Part shown: positions 1,448 through 7,294 of the stretch, one piece after another
How positions within the stretch are numbered: the first letter of the stretch is position 1
Layout: the number at the start of each line of letters is the position of its first letter
DNA from: a virus
Lineage: Duplodnaviria > Heunggongvirae > Uroviricota > Caudoviricetes
Virus record (IMG/VR): IMGVR_UViG_3300000059_000050
Span: 1 to 7,294 of that record
Direction: 5' to 3' (one strand)
Length of the DNA stretch: 7,294 nt
Notes under the pieces: model-generated
Seen by the model: only the letters and a program-made list of their open reading frames with translations
Database searches by the model: none
Told to the model about the DNA's origin: nothing
Made by a program: the position numbers and the translations under genes

Positions 1448-1603
1448 TTACTTCTCAGATTCGTAGTCTACGAAGACAGCGACCTCCGTCTGGCCGGTTC
1501 GGATTCGTACCTCGCAGAGGTCTTTCCTCGTTACCAGTGCCGTCACTATGACGGTTAAACAGATGACGATCAGGGCGATTAACATCGCCTTTTGCTGCTT
1601 CAT
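1448..1603 (-). CDS. hok: Hok/Gef-family type I membrane toxin, 51 aa
   Basis: MKQQKAMLIALIVICLTVIVTALVTRKDLCEVRIRTGQTEVAVFVDYESEK is near-identical in pattern to chromosomal HokD/RelF-type Hok peptides as I recall them (TM helix, then RKxLCEVRxxxGxxEVAxF). ATG at 1601-1603 is preceded by AAGGAGAAG. The track ORF 1448..1660 is an in-frame extension from an ATG 57 nt upstream. Confidence 0.9.
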   Translation of the reverse strand: MKQQKAMLIALIVICLTVIVTALVTRKDLCEVRIRTGQTEVAVFVDYESEK

Positions 1604-2104
1604 AGCCTGCTTCTCCTTGACCTTTCGGTCCGTAAGAGGCAATCTATATGTGACGAGCATATAGGGGCCTCACTTCGATTTATAGTCGGGTGGGGCTTTT
1701 CTCTATCTGCCTTGCAGTGGCATGCCCGAGACAGATAGCCTCAAGCACCCGCAGCAATTCTAACTATCCAATACATCACTGCCAACACTTTAAACTCTCG
1801 CCCTTTAAAACAAGAACAAAATTCAACCAATCAGCATTGGACGCATACTCATATCCTAGAGAAAACGACTCTTTCTGTACTATCTACATCCATTTGATTT
1901 ATAAGCATTTGCCGCTTGCCATAGCCGCACAATGACAGTTTGCCATTTGATGTCAATAGATAAAAACGATCATTTTCAATGAGTTACATACTTGCAAGGC
2001 GTTGCACATCAGGCCCGATTGCATCAGTATCAAAAGATAACAGATGGTGCATTACTGCCACCTCGCCTTAATGTTCCAGAACTATTCAACTTGAGGAATT
2101 TTCA
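1604..2104. promoter_or_regulatory. AT-rich divergent intergenic region: expected hok leader and antisense control region, plus the promoter of the KilA-N gene
   Basis: About 500 bp with no convincing ORF and visibly lower GC than the flanks. Hok loci are known to carry long structured leaders and a short antisense RNA; here these are inferred from position, not seen. Several -35/-10-like hexamers are present but none could be assigned with confidence. Confidence 0.35.
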
Positions 2105-3577: not shown

Positions 3578-4000
3578 TCATTCCTTAACCTGCAACTGCT
3601 TCTTAACCAGTTTACGTAGATGTGCCACAGCCATAGAAAGAGTTTCCACCGCTCGTTTATCCAGCTGTGGGGACAGAGACACCAGTTCGTTTATTGCGAT
3701 CTCAATGCCCTGTGCCTGCACTGTGGGAGCTGGCGGCACACGATACAGCGGAATTACACGACGCGGGTCTGCGTATTTATCTGGAGGACAAGGTAATAAA
3801 TAACCTAAACCAATTTGCTCAACATCTCGCAGTTCCTCGTCATCAGTCCATGCAACTGGTTCTGCTTCCAGCGATGCCAGCGCGATACGAAACACATTGG
3901 CAAGCAGGCTGCTTGAAGATTGGTTATCGTGCGCCGGGTCGCTCAGGAAACCAGTGATGAATGATTTAATTTCCGCGTTTTCTCTGGTAGTAGTGGTCAT
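3578..4000 (-). CDS. Prophage early-region protein of unknown function, 140 aa; paralog of the 2999-3574 product
   Basis: Start ATG overlaps the stop of the upstream gene (ATGA). Motifs RIALASLEAEPVAW and RVIPLYRVPPAPTV. Confidence 0.7.
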   Translation of the reverse strand: MTTTTRENAEIKSFITGFLSDPAHDNQSSSSLLANVFRIALASLEAEPVAWTDDEELRDVEQIGLGYLLPCPPDKYADPRRVIPLYRVPPAPTVQAQGIEIAINELVSLSPQLDKRAVETLSMAVAHLRKLVKKQLQVKE

Positions 4001-4206
4001 TTGTTAATCCTCAAAACTTTATGCCCGGGCGCAAAAGCACGTGTTTTGTCTTTACTTATTCGCCACCCGTCTTTACGGGCCTCTTTTGCACAACCAGACC
4101 ATGACGTACCGATATACTCACCGAAGTCTGGCACTGGATATACACCTTCCGTACACTGGCGGCAGTCACAATAGAGATGCATGGTGTAACTTGCGGCAAT
4201 AGCCAT
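3997..4206 (-). CDS. Small Cys-rich protein (C-x-C-x2-C ... C), putative zinc-binding, 69 aa; tandem paralog copy 1
   Basis: AAGGAGA lies 5 nt before the ATG. Near-identical to the 4817-5032 product (MxIAASYTMHLYCDCRQCT...GEYIGTSW.GCAKEARKDGWRIS.DKTRAFAPGHK). Four conserved Cys. Confidence 0.75.
   Translation of the reverse strand: MAIAASYTMHLYCDCRQCTEGVYPVPDFGEYIGTSWSGCAKEARKDGWRISKDKTRAFAPGHKVLRINK
4011..4206. repeat. Diverged direct repeat, copy 1 (about 196 bp; roughly 85-90% identical to 4837-5032 by eye)
   Basis: Aligned by eye without gaps to 4837-5032. Covers almost the whole Cys-rich gene; similarity continues into the upstream SD region. Confidence 0.8.
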
Positions 4207-4217
4207 ATCAGTCTCCT

Positions 4218-4595
4218 TTAGTGCGCATATAACAGTGATTTTTCCAGCGGTTTTGCTCTCCTGCGCTCTTCCCCAAGCGCATAACGTGCTTCTACCGGGT
4301 CTTTGTCTTCATATTCATAATTGACGCTTTTAACCATCGCTACACAGCACTCATTGCAGCATCTATAGGACATAAGCTCGCCATCAAATTTCCATGTTGT
4401 GCTGCGGTGTATTTCACCCTTTGAGATTTTTCCGGCGCATATGTGGCATGTATATTCACCGCGAGAGGTAACGATTTTATTCGATAACTCAATATCGAAT
4501 GGCGCACCAAAATCACCTTCAAAAAGATAAAAATCCAGAGCGTCTCCTAAATCTTGTTTATTGTATCTCTGCTGCTCTTTTGTGGTAATGGTCAT
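4218..4595 (-). CDS. Cys-cluster protein (CHIC ... CCNECC), putative zinc-ribbon, about 125 aa, unknown function
   Basis: Start taken at ATG 4593-4595 (MTITTKEQQ...), which lies 1 nt after the stop of the upstream membrane-peptide gene. The track's 155-aa version is an N-terminal extension that overlaps that gene in another frame. Confidence 0.65.
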   Translation of the reverse strand: MTITTKEQQRYNKQDLGDALDFYLFEGDFGAPFDIELSNKIVTSRGEYTCHICAGKISKGEIHRSTTWKFDGELMSYRCCNECCVAMVKSVNYEYEDKDPVEARYALGEERRRAKPLEKSLLYAH

Positions 4596-4596
4596 T

Positions 4597-4815
4597 TCAA
4601 CCTTCCTTATACGGATTAATTTTATTGTGCAGTGTGTTGAACGACGCCCATACCACGTCGTTATACAATTCAATAACTGGCTCAATTATTTTCCCGATTG
4701 CCCAGACAAAAATTAGCGGGGATATCGGTATCATCAACACGATAAACAGAATGAGAAACAAAAATTCTGTCGCTCTACTTTTTCGCGGATATTCTTTTCT
4801 GAATAATGTAGGCAC
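4597..4815 (-). CDS. Small membrane protein, 72 aa, one predicted TM helix, GTG start
   Basis: GTG at 4813-4815 is preceded by AGGAGA with a 5-nt spacer; the upstream TGA is 1 nt away. Hydrophobic core FLFLILFIVLMIPISPLIFVWAIG. Confidence 0.6.
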   Translation of the reverse strand: MPTLFRKEYPRKSRATEFLFLILFIVLMIPISPLIFVWAIGKIIEPVIELYNDVVWASFNTLHNKINPYKEG

Positions 4816-4816
4816 A

Positions 4817-5032
4817 TCACTCTCCTTTGTTGCTTCTCAAAATTTTATGCCCTGGCGCAAAAGCACGCGTTTTGTCGACGCTTATTCGCCACCCATCTTT
4901 ACGTGCCTCTTTTGCACAGCCAGCCCATGACGTACCGATATACTCACCAAAATCTGGCGACTGATATTTGCCATCCGTACACTGGCGGCAATCACAATAG
5001 AGATGCATGGTGTAACTTGCGGCAATACTCAT
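4817..5032 (-). CDS. Small Cys-rich protein, putative zinc-binding, 71 aa; tandem paralog copy 2
   Basis: GGAGG lies 4 nt before the ATG, which directly follows the TGA of the 119-aa gene. Same four-Cys pattern as the 3997-4206 product. Confidence 0.75.
   Translation of the reverse strand: MSIAASYTMHLYCDCRQCTDGKYQSPDFGEYIGTSWAGCAKEARKDGWRISVDKTRAFAPGHKILRSNKGE
4837..5032. repeat. Diverged direct repeat, copy 2
   Basis: Partner of 4011-4206, same orientation, 826 bp apart. Confidence 0.8.
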
Positions 5033-5392
5033 TCAGCCTCCTTTGATGCCTGTGTTTACAACCAGGCAGGCCTCCTTGAGTACCCAGTCAATAGCGTCTT
5101 TCCATGCTCCGGTTTCAACTGGCGGATTCTCACGCCGTACCTGTTCATAAAAGCGCACAGCTTTAACCAGTCCTTCTGATGACACCGGGGCTGGCGGGGC
5201 CGTGAATAACGCCTGAATTTCATAGTTCGGTCTGTCGTTACAATCTTCTTTTGTCGGGACATATTTCCAGTCACCAAACCACGACTTACCCTGAGAGTCC
5301 GTAACGCCTTTTTTCACGTAGCGATACCGCCATGCAACTGGTTTTGCCTGCCCTGCCGTTTCATGCCCTTCCTGATAATTAATCTCACTCAT
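5033..5392 (-). CDS. Prophage early-region protein of unknown function, 119 aa
   Basis: Start ATG overlaps the stop of the upstream small ORF (ATGA). N-terminus MSEINYQ is shared with the 5836-6360 product; KPVAW and ALFTAPPAPV motifs are shared with the 140-aa and 191-aa proteins. Confidence 0.7.
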   Translation of the reverse strand: MSEINYQEGHETAGQAKPVAWRYRYVKKGVTDSQGKSWFGDWKYVPTKEDCNDRPNYEIQALFTAPPAPVSSEGLVKAVRFYEQVRRENPPVETGAWKDAIDWVLKEACLVVNTGIKGG

Positions 5393-5565
5393 TCATCGCC
5401 CCACTCATCACAATATGCTTCGACCGGAGTTTTTCCTGCTTCATAATCATCACGCCATGCTTCAGCATCAGCGGCACTTCCACCGCGTAACTCTGCATAA
5501 TCCATTAACAGTTCATGCCATTCTTCAAAACTGGCGTTATATTTAGTTGAACCAAAATCAGCCAT
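5389..5565 (-). CDS. Small acidic protein, 58 aa (MADFGSTKYNASFEEWHELLMDYAELRGGSAADAEAWRDDYEAGKTPVEAYCDEWGDE)
   Basis: Not in the ORF track (below its size cutoff). Its ATG overlaps the end of the 60-aa gene (ATGGCTGA) and its stop overlaps the 119-aa start (ATGA). Counted 16 D/E against 4 K/R. Confidence 0.5.
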   Translation of the reverse strand: MADFGSTKYNASFEEWHELLMDYAELRGGSAADAEAWRDDYEAGKTPVEAYCDEWGDE

Positions 5566-5740
5566 TTTGTTCTTCCTCTTCGTCTTTTATTTCGTGATAT
5601 GAGTAATTGCAGTAGTTAAAGAAAATTTCTTTTGCTTCGTCATGAATTTCATCAGGTGTTGCGTCATCGTCCACTTCGAATACATCCTCAAAATCTCCAC
5701 CAGCTATTCCAGTTTCAATAATTACTTTGAACTTTCGCAT
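5558..5740 (-). CDS. Small very acidic protein, 60 aa
   Basis: ATG-initiated ORF (MRKFKVIIETGIAGGDFEDVFEVDDDATPDEIHDEAKEIFFNYCNYSYHEIKDEEEEQNG). Counted 19 D/E against 5 K/R. Coupled to the downstream 58-aa ORF. SD is weak and sits inside a hairpin. Confidence 0.55.
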   Translation of the reverse strand: MRKFKVIIETGIAGGDFEDVFEVDDDATPDEIHDEAKEIFFNYCNYSYHEIKDEEEEQNG

Positions 5741-5747
5741 TTCATTA

Positions 5748-5796
5748 CCGCCCTTTCAGGCGGCCTCCCGATGTTCTGAGGGTGCAGAAATCCCTC
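5748..5796 (-). other. Two intergenic stem-loops immediately upstream of the 60-aa gene
   Basis: Minus-strand RNA carries GAGGG-auuucugca-CCCUC (plus 5778-5796) and CCGCC-UGAAAG-GGCGG (plus 5748-5763). The second ends 8 nt before the start codon and includes the likely SD. Neither is followed by a U-tract. Confidence 0.4.
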
Positions 5797-5835
5797 CGGT
5801 TAAGGATTAAATTTTATTTACAACACTAAATTTAA

Positions 5836-6360
5836 TTATTCAGGCGCGCGAATCTGTTCCGCACAATGCAACAATGCTTCTGTCACTTCCTTAAGCGTCA
5901 CGGTATCGGCATCATCCAGTCCTGCAACTTTTGCGTGCCTGACAAACGCCGCGCGAAGCTCGTTAAACGCCACCGCCCGTACATCAGCCAGGAAAGCATC
6001 TGTAGCCGGGGTTTGCGGCATACCTCCGTCTGTTGCGCAGATATACGCATCAGATAGTTCATCCTGCTCGCCATCAAACACGTAGCAACTCTGTGCGATA
6101 AATTTATTCAGCCCCGCATTCTCCGCCGCAAGCGCCATGCGTTCTTTCTCAAGTCGGAAAATTTCAGTCACGTATTTGGCGTTTTCACCACCCTTGATTA
6201 ACTCGTTAATTCGTTTGCTTTTAATTTCCAGTTCATCCAGCAGTTCCAGCACAACCTGAGGTGTGGCTTTCATACGAAATGCCAGCAATTTTTGTGGTGT
6301 GGCTGCTATTTTTATTGCTTCTGCCGCCCCACGCAGAGCCTGATAGTTAATCTCGCTCAC
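5836..6360 (-). CDS. Ea22-like lambdoid early protein (tentative family), about 174 aa, GTG start
   Basis: Perfect AGGAGG (plus 6367-6372) lies 6 nt before the GTG at 6358-6360; the track's TTG start at 6390 is an upstream extension. N-terminus [14 protein letters not shown]...VVLELLDE... resembles Ea22-like proteins as I recall them (not verified). Central region looks coiled-coil-like. Overlaps the upstream gene by 14 nt. Confidence 0.7.
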
Positions 6361-7090
6361 TGGTTGCCTCCTGGCAAAGCTGGGCGACAATATCGCGATA
6401 TTTATTCAGCTCCCGCAGCGCGGCACAGACTCGCTCCCATTTCCGGATATCACTTTTCGCCCGACGCAGTTCGCGGTTTGCCTGTCGCAGCGATGGCAGA
6501 ACCAGATTATCCACTCGCTTCTCAAGCGGCTGCACAATGTCCGCCACAGTTTCTGTTTTAATATCTTCCTGTGTTGCAGCTTCCTGTACTGGTAACGCAA
6601 CACATGCAGGCTGAGGAAAGGCTTTACCATCAGTTTCCGCTACCGATGCCGCTTTCGGCTCTGCTGGTAAATTACCGCCCGGCATGCAGTAACGAAATTT
6701 ACCGTTCTGATTAACACGAATCAGACGACCTTTGCTGATTGCCATTGCCAGCGTTGAAGCCACTTTGCGGGATGCTGTACCGAACAGCGTAGCCAGTTCA
6801 TCCGCCGTTTGTGGTCCGCGTTGTTCAATCGTCGCGGTTAAATCGCACTCTGAGATTTTCGCTACTGTCGCCGTGGTGGTTTCTTCCGGCTGTTCTTCTG
6901 GCGCTGGCTGTTCCTGCTGAACGTTGTTATCAGCCACACGCCAGGTGTATACGCTTTTATCAACGAATCCAGCCTTTTTCAGTTCCCACAGCTCGTTCAG
7001 TACTTCTTCACGACTGATATCAAGTCGCGCAGCCAGCTCTACCGACGTGGCTTTTCCCATCGCTTTCAGTGCGTCAAAAACAGTCTCCAT
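6347..7090 (-). CDS. Prophage protein with two putative winged-helix-like segments, 247 aa, unknown function
   Basis: GGGAGG lies 6 nt before the ATG. Two similar helix-turn-helix-like stretches (around residues 1-50 and 90-140) are separated by an acidic, Pro/Gln-rich linker. The domain call is by eye only. Confidence 0.7.
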
Positions 7091-7122: not shown

Positions 7123-7294
7123 TCAAACAAACCCAGCCGCTTTCCGGCGTTCATATTCCTGTTTCAGTAACTCAATTGGCGTTGGCCCCGACGGGCGTTT
7201 GGGTGCCGCCAGTTGTCGCCGGACTGGCGGAACGCCCAGGCCGTTACTAACATGCTTTGCCCATTTCGTCAGCTGCCGTTCTGCCAGCCGTTTT
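7123..7294 (-). CDS. Hypothetical protein, C-terminal 56 codons (5' end lies beyond the window)
   Basis: Minus frame is open from the window edge to a TGA at 7123-7125 (...KRLAERQLTKWAKHVSNGLGVPPVRRQLAAPKRPSGPTPIELLKQEYERRKAAGFV). The next gene starts 32 nt downstream with its own SD. Confidence 0.45.
   Translation of the reverse strand, partial: KRLAERQLTKWAKHVSNGLGVPPVRRQLAAPKRPSGPTPIELLKQEYERRKAAGFV

Follow-up and report, generated by a model that had tools for sequence, protein, structure and literature searches.

Two adjacent small acidic genes of an Escherichia coli lambdoid prophage: members of two uncharacterised, apparently independent families with a possible inhibitory role

The stretch of DNA analysed here, hereafter the window (7,294 nucleotides (nt); IMG/VR virus record IMGVR_UViG_3300000059_000050), is an Escherichia coli lambdoid prophage that carries two adjacent, very small genes encoding proteins of 60 and 58 amino acids (aa). 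A preliminary description, made from the sequence alone, had taken the two products for a possible DNA-mimic or anti-defence pair, translationally coupled and strongly acidic. All genes around the two small open reading frames (ORFs) lie on the minus strand. Read from position 7294 towards position 1, the gene order is a DUF1627 protein, an Ead/Ea22-like protein, the 60-aa gene, the 58-aa gene, a 119-aa protein of PHROG 660, a 71-aa and a 155-aa Cys-rich protein, a 69-aa paralogue of the 71-aa protein, proteins of 140 and 191 aa, a KilA-N gene (plus strand), hok/sok and a Fic/Doc gene (Table 1). The 60-aa product, MRKFKVIIETGIAGGDFEDVFEVDDDATPDEIHDEAKEIFFNYCNYSYHEIKDEEEEQNG, contains 19 Asp/Glu, 5 Lys/Arg and 8 Phe/Trp/Tyr residues and has a pI of 4.06; the 58-aa product, MADFGSTKYNASFEEWHELLMDYAELRGGSAADAEAWRDDYEAGKTPVEAYCDEWGDE, contains 16, 4 and 9 of these residues, respectively, and has a pI of 4.05. 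The ORF coordinates and the counts of charged residues given previously were exact, and both products are indeed strongly acidic and rich in aromatic residues.

Table 1 Positions of the two small genes, their overlaps and the neighbouring features in the window
Feature	Position	Strand	Basis
60-aa acidic protein, Pfam DUF7167 / PHROG 1997	5558..5740	minus	ORF, composition, profile matches
58-aa acidic protein, PHROG 519, without Pfam family	5389..5565	minus	ORF, composition, phrog_519
ATGGCTGA overlap, 60-aa stop and 58-aa start	5558..5565	minus	read in sequence
ATGA overlap, 58-aa stop and 119-aa start	5389..5392	minus	read in sequence
119-aa protein, PHROG 660, downstream neighbour, coupled to the 58-aa gene	5033..5392	minus	ORF and PHROG match
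Intergenic leader, 95 nt, upstream of the DUF7167 gene	5741..5835	minus	7-bp GC-rich hairpin before the start codon
Ead/Ea22-like protein, 184 aa, upstream neighbour	5836..6390	minus	Pfam PF13935 E=1.5e-9
71-aa Cys-rich gene	4817-5032	minus	PHROG 926 match
155-aa Cys-rich gene, between the 69-aa and 71-aa paralogues	4218-4685	minus	weak DUF7576 match
69-aa Cys-rich gene, paralogue of the 71-aa gene	3997-4206	minus	87% identical to the 71-aa gene
hok toxin ORF	1448-1660	minus	Pfam HOK_GEF E=1e-22
sok antisense RNA	1601-1750		Rfam RF01794, 104.8 bits
Fic/Doc-family protein, 164 aa	547-1041	minus	Pfam PF02661 E=7e-12

The overlaps with both neighbours that had been described, ATGGCTGA upstream and ATGA downstream of the 58-aa gene, were confirmed by reading the sequence. 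A Shine-Dalgarno sequence, GAGGAAG (at about 5574-5580), lies 8 nt 5' of the 58-aa ATG, in the stretch of Glu codons that specify the DEEEE tail of the upstream 60-aa product. Such an arrangement recurs: in both families, GAG-GAN Glu/Asp codons of the tail serve again and again as the Shine-Dalgarno sequence for the gene that follows (5389-5400 and 5566-5582 in the window, and also in L003, L018, L019 and L022 among the numbered related loci), so that tail acidity and translational coupling are entangled. In every context examined, the genes are tightly packed, with an overlap or a gap of a few nt to the neighbour on at least one side. Judged from this layout, both genes appear to be part of polycistronic early or replication-module operons and arranged for translational coupling.

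Given that the two ORFs are very short and that certain annotations by PGAP leave out one of them, they might be chance ORFs or decaying filler rather than functional proteins. PGAP does annotate both genes, and pairwise dN/dS values were far below 1 (0.07-0.22 for the 58-aa gene and 0.05-0.23 for the 60-aa gene), with synonymous sites being saturated in distant pairs whose proteins are still 45-80% identical. Homologues at 35-60% identity occur in distant phages and plasmids with the core residues kept, and the confident fold predictions, the exchange at exact ORF ends, and the good Shine-Dalgarno sequences and stop-start coupling seen in every context likewise speak against chance ORFs. Furthermore, the 352-bp two-gene block had a match in 1931 of 5426 complete genomes of E. 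coli; 1750 of these hold 80% or more of its length, and 2346 of its 2352 placements in these genomes are on chromosomes. In E. coli A36 (NZ_CP028739), both genes are present with 100% identity. The low dN/dS and the conservation indicate that both genes are genuine and under purifying selection; as judged from sequence conservation, the chance-ORF explanation is effectively refuted, and both ORFs appear to be real, conserved genes. The 58-aa gene had been regarded as previously uncalled, which is correct only with respect to the length cut-off of that first reading, since RefSeq/PGAP annotates it as WP_000753067.1, "hypothetical protein", in NZ_LR778141.

NZ_LR778141 is also the closest annotated relative of the window (98.4% identity), and its block lies between a DnaC-like replication gene and the RusA and Q antiterminator genes. 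By this gene order, the block would occupy the nin-like part of the delayed-early pR operon, which is early, although other phage DNA is expressed first. The early-phage setting proposed before is thus supported as far as the pR operon and the interval from replication genes to Q are concerned, but the genes are delayed-early and not among the first to be expressed. Directly upstream stands the Ea22-like gene, and both small-protein families recur directly downstream of Ea22-like genes in other lambdoid phages (L003-L008 and L019).

Both products belong to families that are catalogued yet uncharacterised, as is common in the accessory regions of prophages. Over its full length, the 60-aa protein belongs to DUF7167 and PHROG 1997: it scored 54.9 bits (E=9.2e-15) against Pfam PF23768, exceeding the gathering score of 24.4 bits, with residues 2-53 aligned to profile positions 1-60 of 60, and it matched phrog_1997 with E=8e-31. 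Its RefSeq name is "DUF7167 family protein", and its 90%-identity cluster has 596 members. In the DUF7167 alignment, E9, T10, E22, V23, A27 and C44 are invariant, an N-x-C-N-Y loop is found, and the conserved acidic residues are E9, E22, D26, E31, E35 and E50. The acidic C-terminal tail (DEEEEQNG in the 60-aa protein) is kept in all DUF7167 members, whichever gene follows.

The 58-aa protein matched phrog_519 with 82.3 bits (E=8.5e-23), its residues 1-58 being aligned to profile positions 76-137 of 143, which suggests that some members carry additional N-terminal sequence. It had no Pfam, NCBIfam or PADLOC match, singly or over 27 diverse members. The family motif reads F-x2-W-x3-L ... GGSAxD-x3-W-R-x-D-Y-x2-G-x-T-P-x2-A-W-x3-W-G; in an alignment of 27 sequences, the near-invariant core comprises F13, W16, L20, A24, W37, Y41, A50, W/Y51 and W55, and the turn G44-x-T46-P47 is conserved. 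Its 90%-identity cluster has 491 members, one of which occurs on at least 1000 contigs. A hidden Markov model (HMM) search of 1.84 billion representative proteins with this family gave only 66 clusters, nearly all of them stand-alone proteins of 50-65 aa. For the 60-aa protein, too, NCBIfam and PADLOC gave no match, and in Pfam neither protein had a match at E<=0.1 to a known mimic family or to anything apart from DUF7167. The homologues found by tblastn against 50,697 phage records were all uncharacterised, and no functional name for either small protein was found in the public sources searched. Neither of the two products matched a characterised family.

The net charges are -14 for the 60-aa and -12 for the 58-aa protein, that is, -0.23 and -0.21 per residue. 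As a reference, 38 annotated small coding sequences of related loci had a mean of -0.01 per residue (standard deviation 0.074), and only two of them reached -0.2. Remote homologues stay acidic, with net charges of -4 to -14 in 22 members of the 58-aa family and -10 to -13 in four distant DUF7167 proteins. In the 58-aa family, 13 positions interleaved with the core are acidic in at least 60% of the members, down to about 35% identity (14, 15, 33, 35, 39, 40, 42, 49, 53, 54, 57 and 58, with 18 being borderline at 0.59). On the predicted structure of the 58-aa protein, this negative charge would fall at defined positions on those faces of the helices that point to the solvent, which is what a functional binding surface should look like.

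That structure, an AlphaFold2 model made with the family alignment, is a three-helix bundle (helices 13-27, 34-43 and 47-55; pLDDT 79.4). The corresponding model of the 60-aa protein has a beta-beta-alpha-beta fold (strands 2-9, 16-23 and 45-51, helix 29-39; pLDDT 78.6), followed by an acidic C-terminal helix of low confidence. Both models are moderately confident and predict compact folded domains rather than disordered acidic tails. Judged from the secondary structure of the 58-aa model, helices 2 and 3 with their Gly turn may resemble a helix-turn-helix (HTH) having an acidic "recognition" helix. Sequence-profile searches of the PDB gave nothing meaningful for either family. The ribosomal protein uL23 was considered as a relative of DUF7167 (E=0.027) and was judged a chance match, which comprised only a short FxV..DAT..EI motif.

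The distribution of the two families bears directly on whether they form a pair. In an HMM search of the related loci up to L019, both families occurred together only in the window, L001 and L002, while the 58-aa family was found alone in 13 loci and DUF7167 alone in four (L016-L019). Among phage records, the 58-aa family was present in 219 and DUF7167 in 36, and the 13 records holding both are all of the E. coli type. On plasmids, the numbers were 561 (516 of them conjugative and most apparently IncI2) for the 58-aa family and 15 for DUF7167.

Where the 58-aa gene occurs alone, its surroundings vary widely. In Enterobacter lambdoids it follows an Ea22-like gene upstream of xis/int, or lies in the nin region after lambda-type O/P genes, and in two diverged P2-like lineages it always stands directly after the replication initiator gene gpA. 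About 195 phage records with less than 60% identity are mostly virulent Ackermannviridae of Salmonella, Klebsiella, Escherichia, Shigella and Dickeya, and one such protein, CBA120 orf183, aligns with the 58-aa protein over the whole domain. About 420 plasmid matches have 80-90% identity; among those listed, most are E. coli plasmids of about 60 kb with a DUF1187 neighbour as in IncI2. In the IncI2 mcr-1 plasmid examined, the 58-aa gene overlaps the DUF1187 gene and is itself followed by SPFH/NfeD genes. DUF7167 alone was found in Klebsiella Guernseyvirinae, where it overlaps a DUF2800/PD-(D/E)XK nuclease gene between the helicase-primase and DNA polymerase genes; in Enterococcus Herelleviridae, after a DUF3850/ASCH gene; and in a Klebsiella temperate phage, after an Ea22-like gene.

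In blastn comparisons, the homology with Enterobacter prophages (79%; L003/L004, 4001-4173) and that with the IncI2 mcr-1 plasmid (88%; L022, 9001-9173) were both limited to positions 5393-5565 of the window. The homology therefore ends at the boundaries of the 58-aa ORF, pointing to the exchange of a single-ORF cassette between phage and plasmid. These results do not bear out the idea of a pair put forward in the preliminary description, because each family is widespread without the other and homology stops at the ends of one ORF. On the basis of these comparisons, the pair appears to be a lineage-specific juxtaposition of two autonomous single-ORF modules, and the 58-aa gene would benefit very different mobile elements irrespective of the neighbouring genes. 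Spread over unrelated mobile elements is typical of host- or defence-directed accessory genes. With a conserved acidic three-helix domain, exact-ORF exchange and no Pfam entry, the 58-aa family is the most interesting element of this locus.

A dedicated two-component system, in which the two products would heterodimerise or share a common target as an anti-defence or DNA-mimic pair, could nevertheless be considered within E. coli. Among the E. coli records with any match, 1753 of 1934 hold at least 80% of the two-gene block, and a cassette spanning 5344-5771 is shared whole with the Stx phage ArgO145 despite other flanking genes there; moreover, the stop/start overlaps favour roughly matched protein amounts. 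A precedent for co-encoded small inhibitors is AcrIE9/AcrIE10, a widespread Enterobacterales pair that is overwhelmingly plasmid-borne, often located near FlmC and rare in prophages (PMC12248084). Like the genes described here, these are two adjacent small genes that nearly always occur together within a host group, in mobile elements of Enterobacterales. They differ in being plasmid-borne, the present genes being carried in prophages and on chromosomes, a distinction drawn from genomic context only and not from sequence. Furthermore, the two members of the present pair separate outside E. coli: beyond the E. coli lambdoids, the 58-aa gene stands alone (L003-L015, L022, L023 and L026-L029), as does DUF7167 (L016-L019), and records with both are few relative to those with either. 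The like charges of the two products make a tight heterodimer a poor candidate, and a natural fusion of both families was not found. Long members of the 58-aa family were inspected as possible Rosetta-stone fusions, and they carry other N-termini, never DUF7167: that of P0146 matches DUF1187, while P0187 and P0180 gave sub-threshold Pfam matches only, and the N-terminus of P0187 is unrelated to the 155-aa Cys-rich protein of the window. Altogether, we regard a dedicated two-component system as improbable.

The main alternative explanation is that the two proteins are phage-internal accessory factors, each binding or modulating a phage-encoded DNA-processing protein such as an initiator, a nuclease or an Ea22-like protein. 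This would agree with the position of the lambdoid copies after O/P/DnaC-like genes and of the P2-like copies directly after gpA, with the overlap between DUF7167 and the DUF2800/PD-(D/E)XK gene in the replication module of Klebsiella Guernseyvirinae, and with the repeated location of both families behind Ea22-like genes. The adjacent genes, however, vary by context (Ea22-like, gpA, DUF1187, DUF7167, DUF3850/ASCH, SPFH and others), conjugative plasmids also carry the 58-aa family, which in Ackermannviridae lies beside capsid genes, and no one phage-encoded partner co-varies with either family. A phage-internal role is thus rather unlikely in our view. A functional link between DUF7167 and an exonuclease was also considered and rejected, since the neighbour is DUF2800/PD-(D/E)XK in Klebsiella but DUF3850/ASCH in Enterococcus, that is, the neighbourhood is not conserved.

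Several further observations concern the slots that these families occupy. DUF3850/ASCH genes recur in the slots of both small families (phage P2, L021, 2817-3146; L018, 2471-3013; L029, 1759-2094). In phage P2, the position after gpA is taken by Orf91, where the other P2-like phages examined hold the 58-aa family. The DUF3850 gene directly 5' of DUF7167 in Enterococcus phage MDA2 is annotated as "exonuclease", an annotation without Pfam support. In Salmonella P2-like prophages (L010; L014, 4868-6085), a candidate defence gene of the nSTAND1/AAA (Avs-like) type lies a few hundred bases 3' of the 58-aa family gene, in the variable region between gpA and the portal gene; the gpA-to-cos interval of P2 has tin and old. 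On a 335-kb Klebsiella plasmid (L023, 8545-12171), a 58-aa homologue lies about 2.4 kb upstream of Cas6-like, helicase and Csf2 genes; these CRISPR-associated genes look like a type IV system, and the proximity may be a coincidence. Finally, a stretch of 851 bp in PP818812.1, named "Actinobacillus phage vB_Apl-pPE4", shares 94% identity with this region of the window; the host label looks doubtful, or the phage may be an E. coli lambdoid.

The 58-aa family might also be an anti-CRISPR (Acr), as predicted by machine learning (ML) for PHROG 519. Of six Kuttervirus genomes, five had PHROG 519 assigned as an anti-CRISPR by AcrHub/PaCRISPR, a result that is a prediction only (PMC9409062), and this was the only paper on PHROG 519 in the literature searched. 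The small size, acidity and spread over mobile elements resemble those of many Acrs; however, the predictors key mainly on small size and acidity, neither Pfam nor NCBIfam gave an Acr match, and no Aca-type HTH regulator is adjacent in the window. The nearest HTH-containing gene there is the DUF1627 gene, 600 nt upstream and not Aca-like, and the direct neighbours are the Ea22-like and PHROG 660 genes. In addition, 13 candidates from E. coli that ML had predicted to act against type I-E systems showed no inhibition (PMC12248084); they may or may not include the present proteins, and their inactivity calls for caution in taking "small and acidic" for Acr. An anti-CRISPR role as predicted for the 58-aa family is, on this evidence, distinctly improbable.

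The reading that we tentatively favour, although it falls short of being probable, is that the 60-aa and 58-aa proteins are small acidic binders, independent of each other and each directed at a basic host or defence protein that itself probably binds nucleic acids. It is favoured because the genes are real, the predicted folds compact, the acidity unusual and position-specific, the 58-aa family mobile and the context early. Literal DNA mimicry would account for perhaps half of this reading and anti-CRISPR activity for a small slice of it. Under this proposal, two single-gene accessory cassettes would have been fused in E. coli lambdoid prophages as one coupled unit, which would be read as part of the delayed-early pR operon, with the replication genes on one side of it and the Q antiterminator gene on the other. 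The stop/start overlaps and the ribosome-binding site inside the upstream Glu/Asp codons would ensure translation of both tiny ORFs, and each product would then act stoichiometrically, presenting its conserved negative surface to a basic surface of its target and thereby blocking it. The mode of action proposed here is, in general, that of Ocr, Gp2, gp5.9, p56, many anti-CRISPRs and other small inhibitors encoded by phages.

Known small mimics and anti-restriction proteins (T7 Ocr, ArdA, T4 Arn, phi29 p56, T7 gp5.9 and lambda Gam) are like the present proteins in their dense Asp/Glu residues, their small size and their carriage by phages and conjugative plasmids. Mimics of such small size do exist, p56 having 56 aa and gp5.9 52 aa. 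The best mimic match of the DUF7167 model was p56, and it was weak (Foldseek TM-scores 0.44/0.48, E=4.6); for the 58-aa model, no solved mimic was matched by Foldseek in the PDB. T7 Gp2 (64 aa; PDB 4lk0 chain M), an acidic protein that inhibits the host RNA polymerase by docking in the DNA channel of the enzyme at the beta-prime jaw, is similar to DUF7167 in size and beta-beta-alpha-beta topology, and it is, like the 60-aa protein, acidic and early-expressed. It ranked third among the PDB Foldseek matches of the DUF7167 model (TM-scores 0.53/0.59, root-mean-square deviation 2.3 A over 48 columns), and it was not among the top BFVD matches of this model. The Gp2 arginines R56 and R58, which are required for binding to the jaw, fall at positions that are not conserved in DUF7167 in a hand alignment. 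As far as the models go, the likeness between DUF7167 and Gp2 would be one of fold class only.

Several results weigh against the proposal of two independent inhibitors. Neither model had a Foldseek match in the PDB at E<1, and neither protein could be linked to a characterised inhibitor or DNA mimic, by homology or by a significant similarity of fold. The link to DNA mimics or anti-restriction proteins that had been suggested from size and charge accordingly found no support, and neither did one to anti-CRISPRs, by sequence or by fold, in Pfam, NCBIfam, PADLOC, the PDB profiles or Foldseek. Homology of DUF7167 to T7 Gp2 was rejected, with hhalign of the family alignment giving a probability of 0.3% (E=0.2) and Foldseek a probability of 0.38 (E=1.6). 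A BFVD fold search with the DUF7167 model gave more than 1000 weak matches, the best of which were proteins of about 55 aa, likewise uncharacterised, from phages of many hosts; on this evidence DUF7167 appears to be part of a large uncharacterised population of tiny phage proteins sharing a fold. Timing is a further point, as the genes here are delayed-early and anti-restriction genes are typically expressed earlier. Some of the acidic residues (5 of the 19 in the 60-aa protein and about 2 of the 16 in the 58-aa protein) lie in the C-terminal tails with the Shine-Dalgarno codons, and this share may have been shaped by translational coupling. Lastly, on the IncI2 plasmid pMCR_1884_B3, the 58-aa family gene (at 38.7 kb) is located about 15 kb from oriT, the latter being placed by gene order, beyond repA and on the side of oriT opposite mobC and the relaxase gene (53.9-58.6 kb). 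It heads a transfer-associated operon with a CaiF/GrlA-type regulator, DUF1187, SPFH and NfeD genes that runs on into genes of the type IV secretion system, and by this gene order its location would be no obvious leading-region anti-defence island.

Taken with these points, an anti-defence or DNA-mimic function of the two independent binders is a plausible inference. A bolder version, possible but doubtful, is that the 58-aa protein founds an undescribed family, a portable single-ORF inhibitor with its acidic HTH-like surface as a nucleic-acid decoy, employed alike by lambdoid, P2-like and Ackermannviridae phages and by IncI2 or other conjugative plasmids against one conserved enterobacterial DNA-binding target. 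DUF7167 would then be an inhibitor family of its own, unrelated to the first and of Gp2-like fold. Candidates for the target in this case would be a nuclease or sensor of a defence system, or host factors such as RecBCD, H-NS or a restriction enzyme. The probability left over by the explanations considered here belongs to something else. In the literature searched, no paper mentioned DUF7167, DUF1187 or WP_000753067, and a review of exo-xis region modelling does not have these small proteins in its coverage.

With respect to the flanks of the two genes, the leader upstream of the DUF7167 gene contains a GC-rich hairpin of 7 bp, GCCGCCU-GAAA-GGGCGGU, adjoining the start codon. A regulatory element in this leader was considered and not supported: the fold z-score of -1.17 is not significant, and a scan of the minus strand revealed no promoter or terminator consensus. 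The 31 nt closest to the start codon (to 5771) travel with the two-gene cassette. The 119-aa protein (5033-5392, minus strand) and the 184-aa Ea22-like protein (5836-6390, minus strand), which flank the cassette, have a common motif, SEINYQ, near their N-termini, and the ArgO145 homology begins 48 nt within the 119-aa gene. Together, the motif and the start of the homology suggest a mosaic recombination joint bracketing the two-gene cassette.

Further away, the 69-aa and 71-aa paralogues around the 155-aa Cys-rich gene look like a local duplication or a recombination scar. The 140-aa and 191-aa proteins had no Pfam match, and they may be Ea22-like, as judged from a common ALASLEAEPV motif spotted by eye. 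A complete hok/sok type I toxin-antitoxin locus occupies 1448-1750 (minus strand). Just upstream of the Fic/Doc gene there is a 75-aa ORF (1051-1278) without a family match, which could encode an antitoxin.

Overall, these families are useful for annotation and as candidates for anti-defence screens even without a known function, the two genes being independent cassettes and the 58-aa ORF being exchanged between phages and plasmids precisely from end to end, and the 58-aa family in particular is a reasonable candidate for such screens. The two-gene block is present in about one third of complete E. coli genomes, and homologues of the 58-aa protein are also found in therapeutic-type Ackermannviridae phages and in IncI2 plasmids carrying mcr-1. 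Should one of the two proteins prove to be an inhibitor, a new and very small family of anti-defence or host-takeover proteins would be added, and a target common to such different elements would point to a barrier of broad importance that incoming DNA meets in Enterobacteriaceae.

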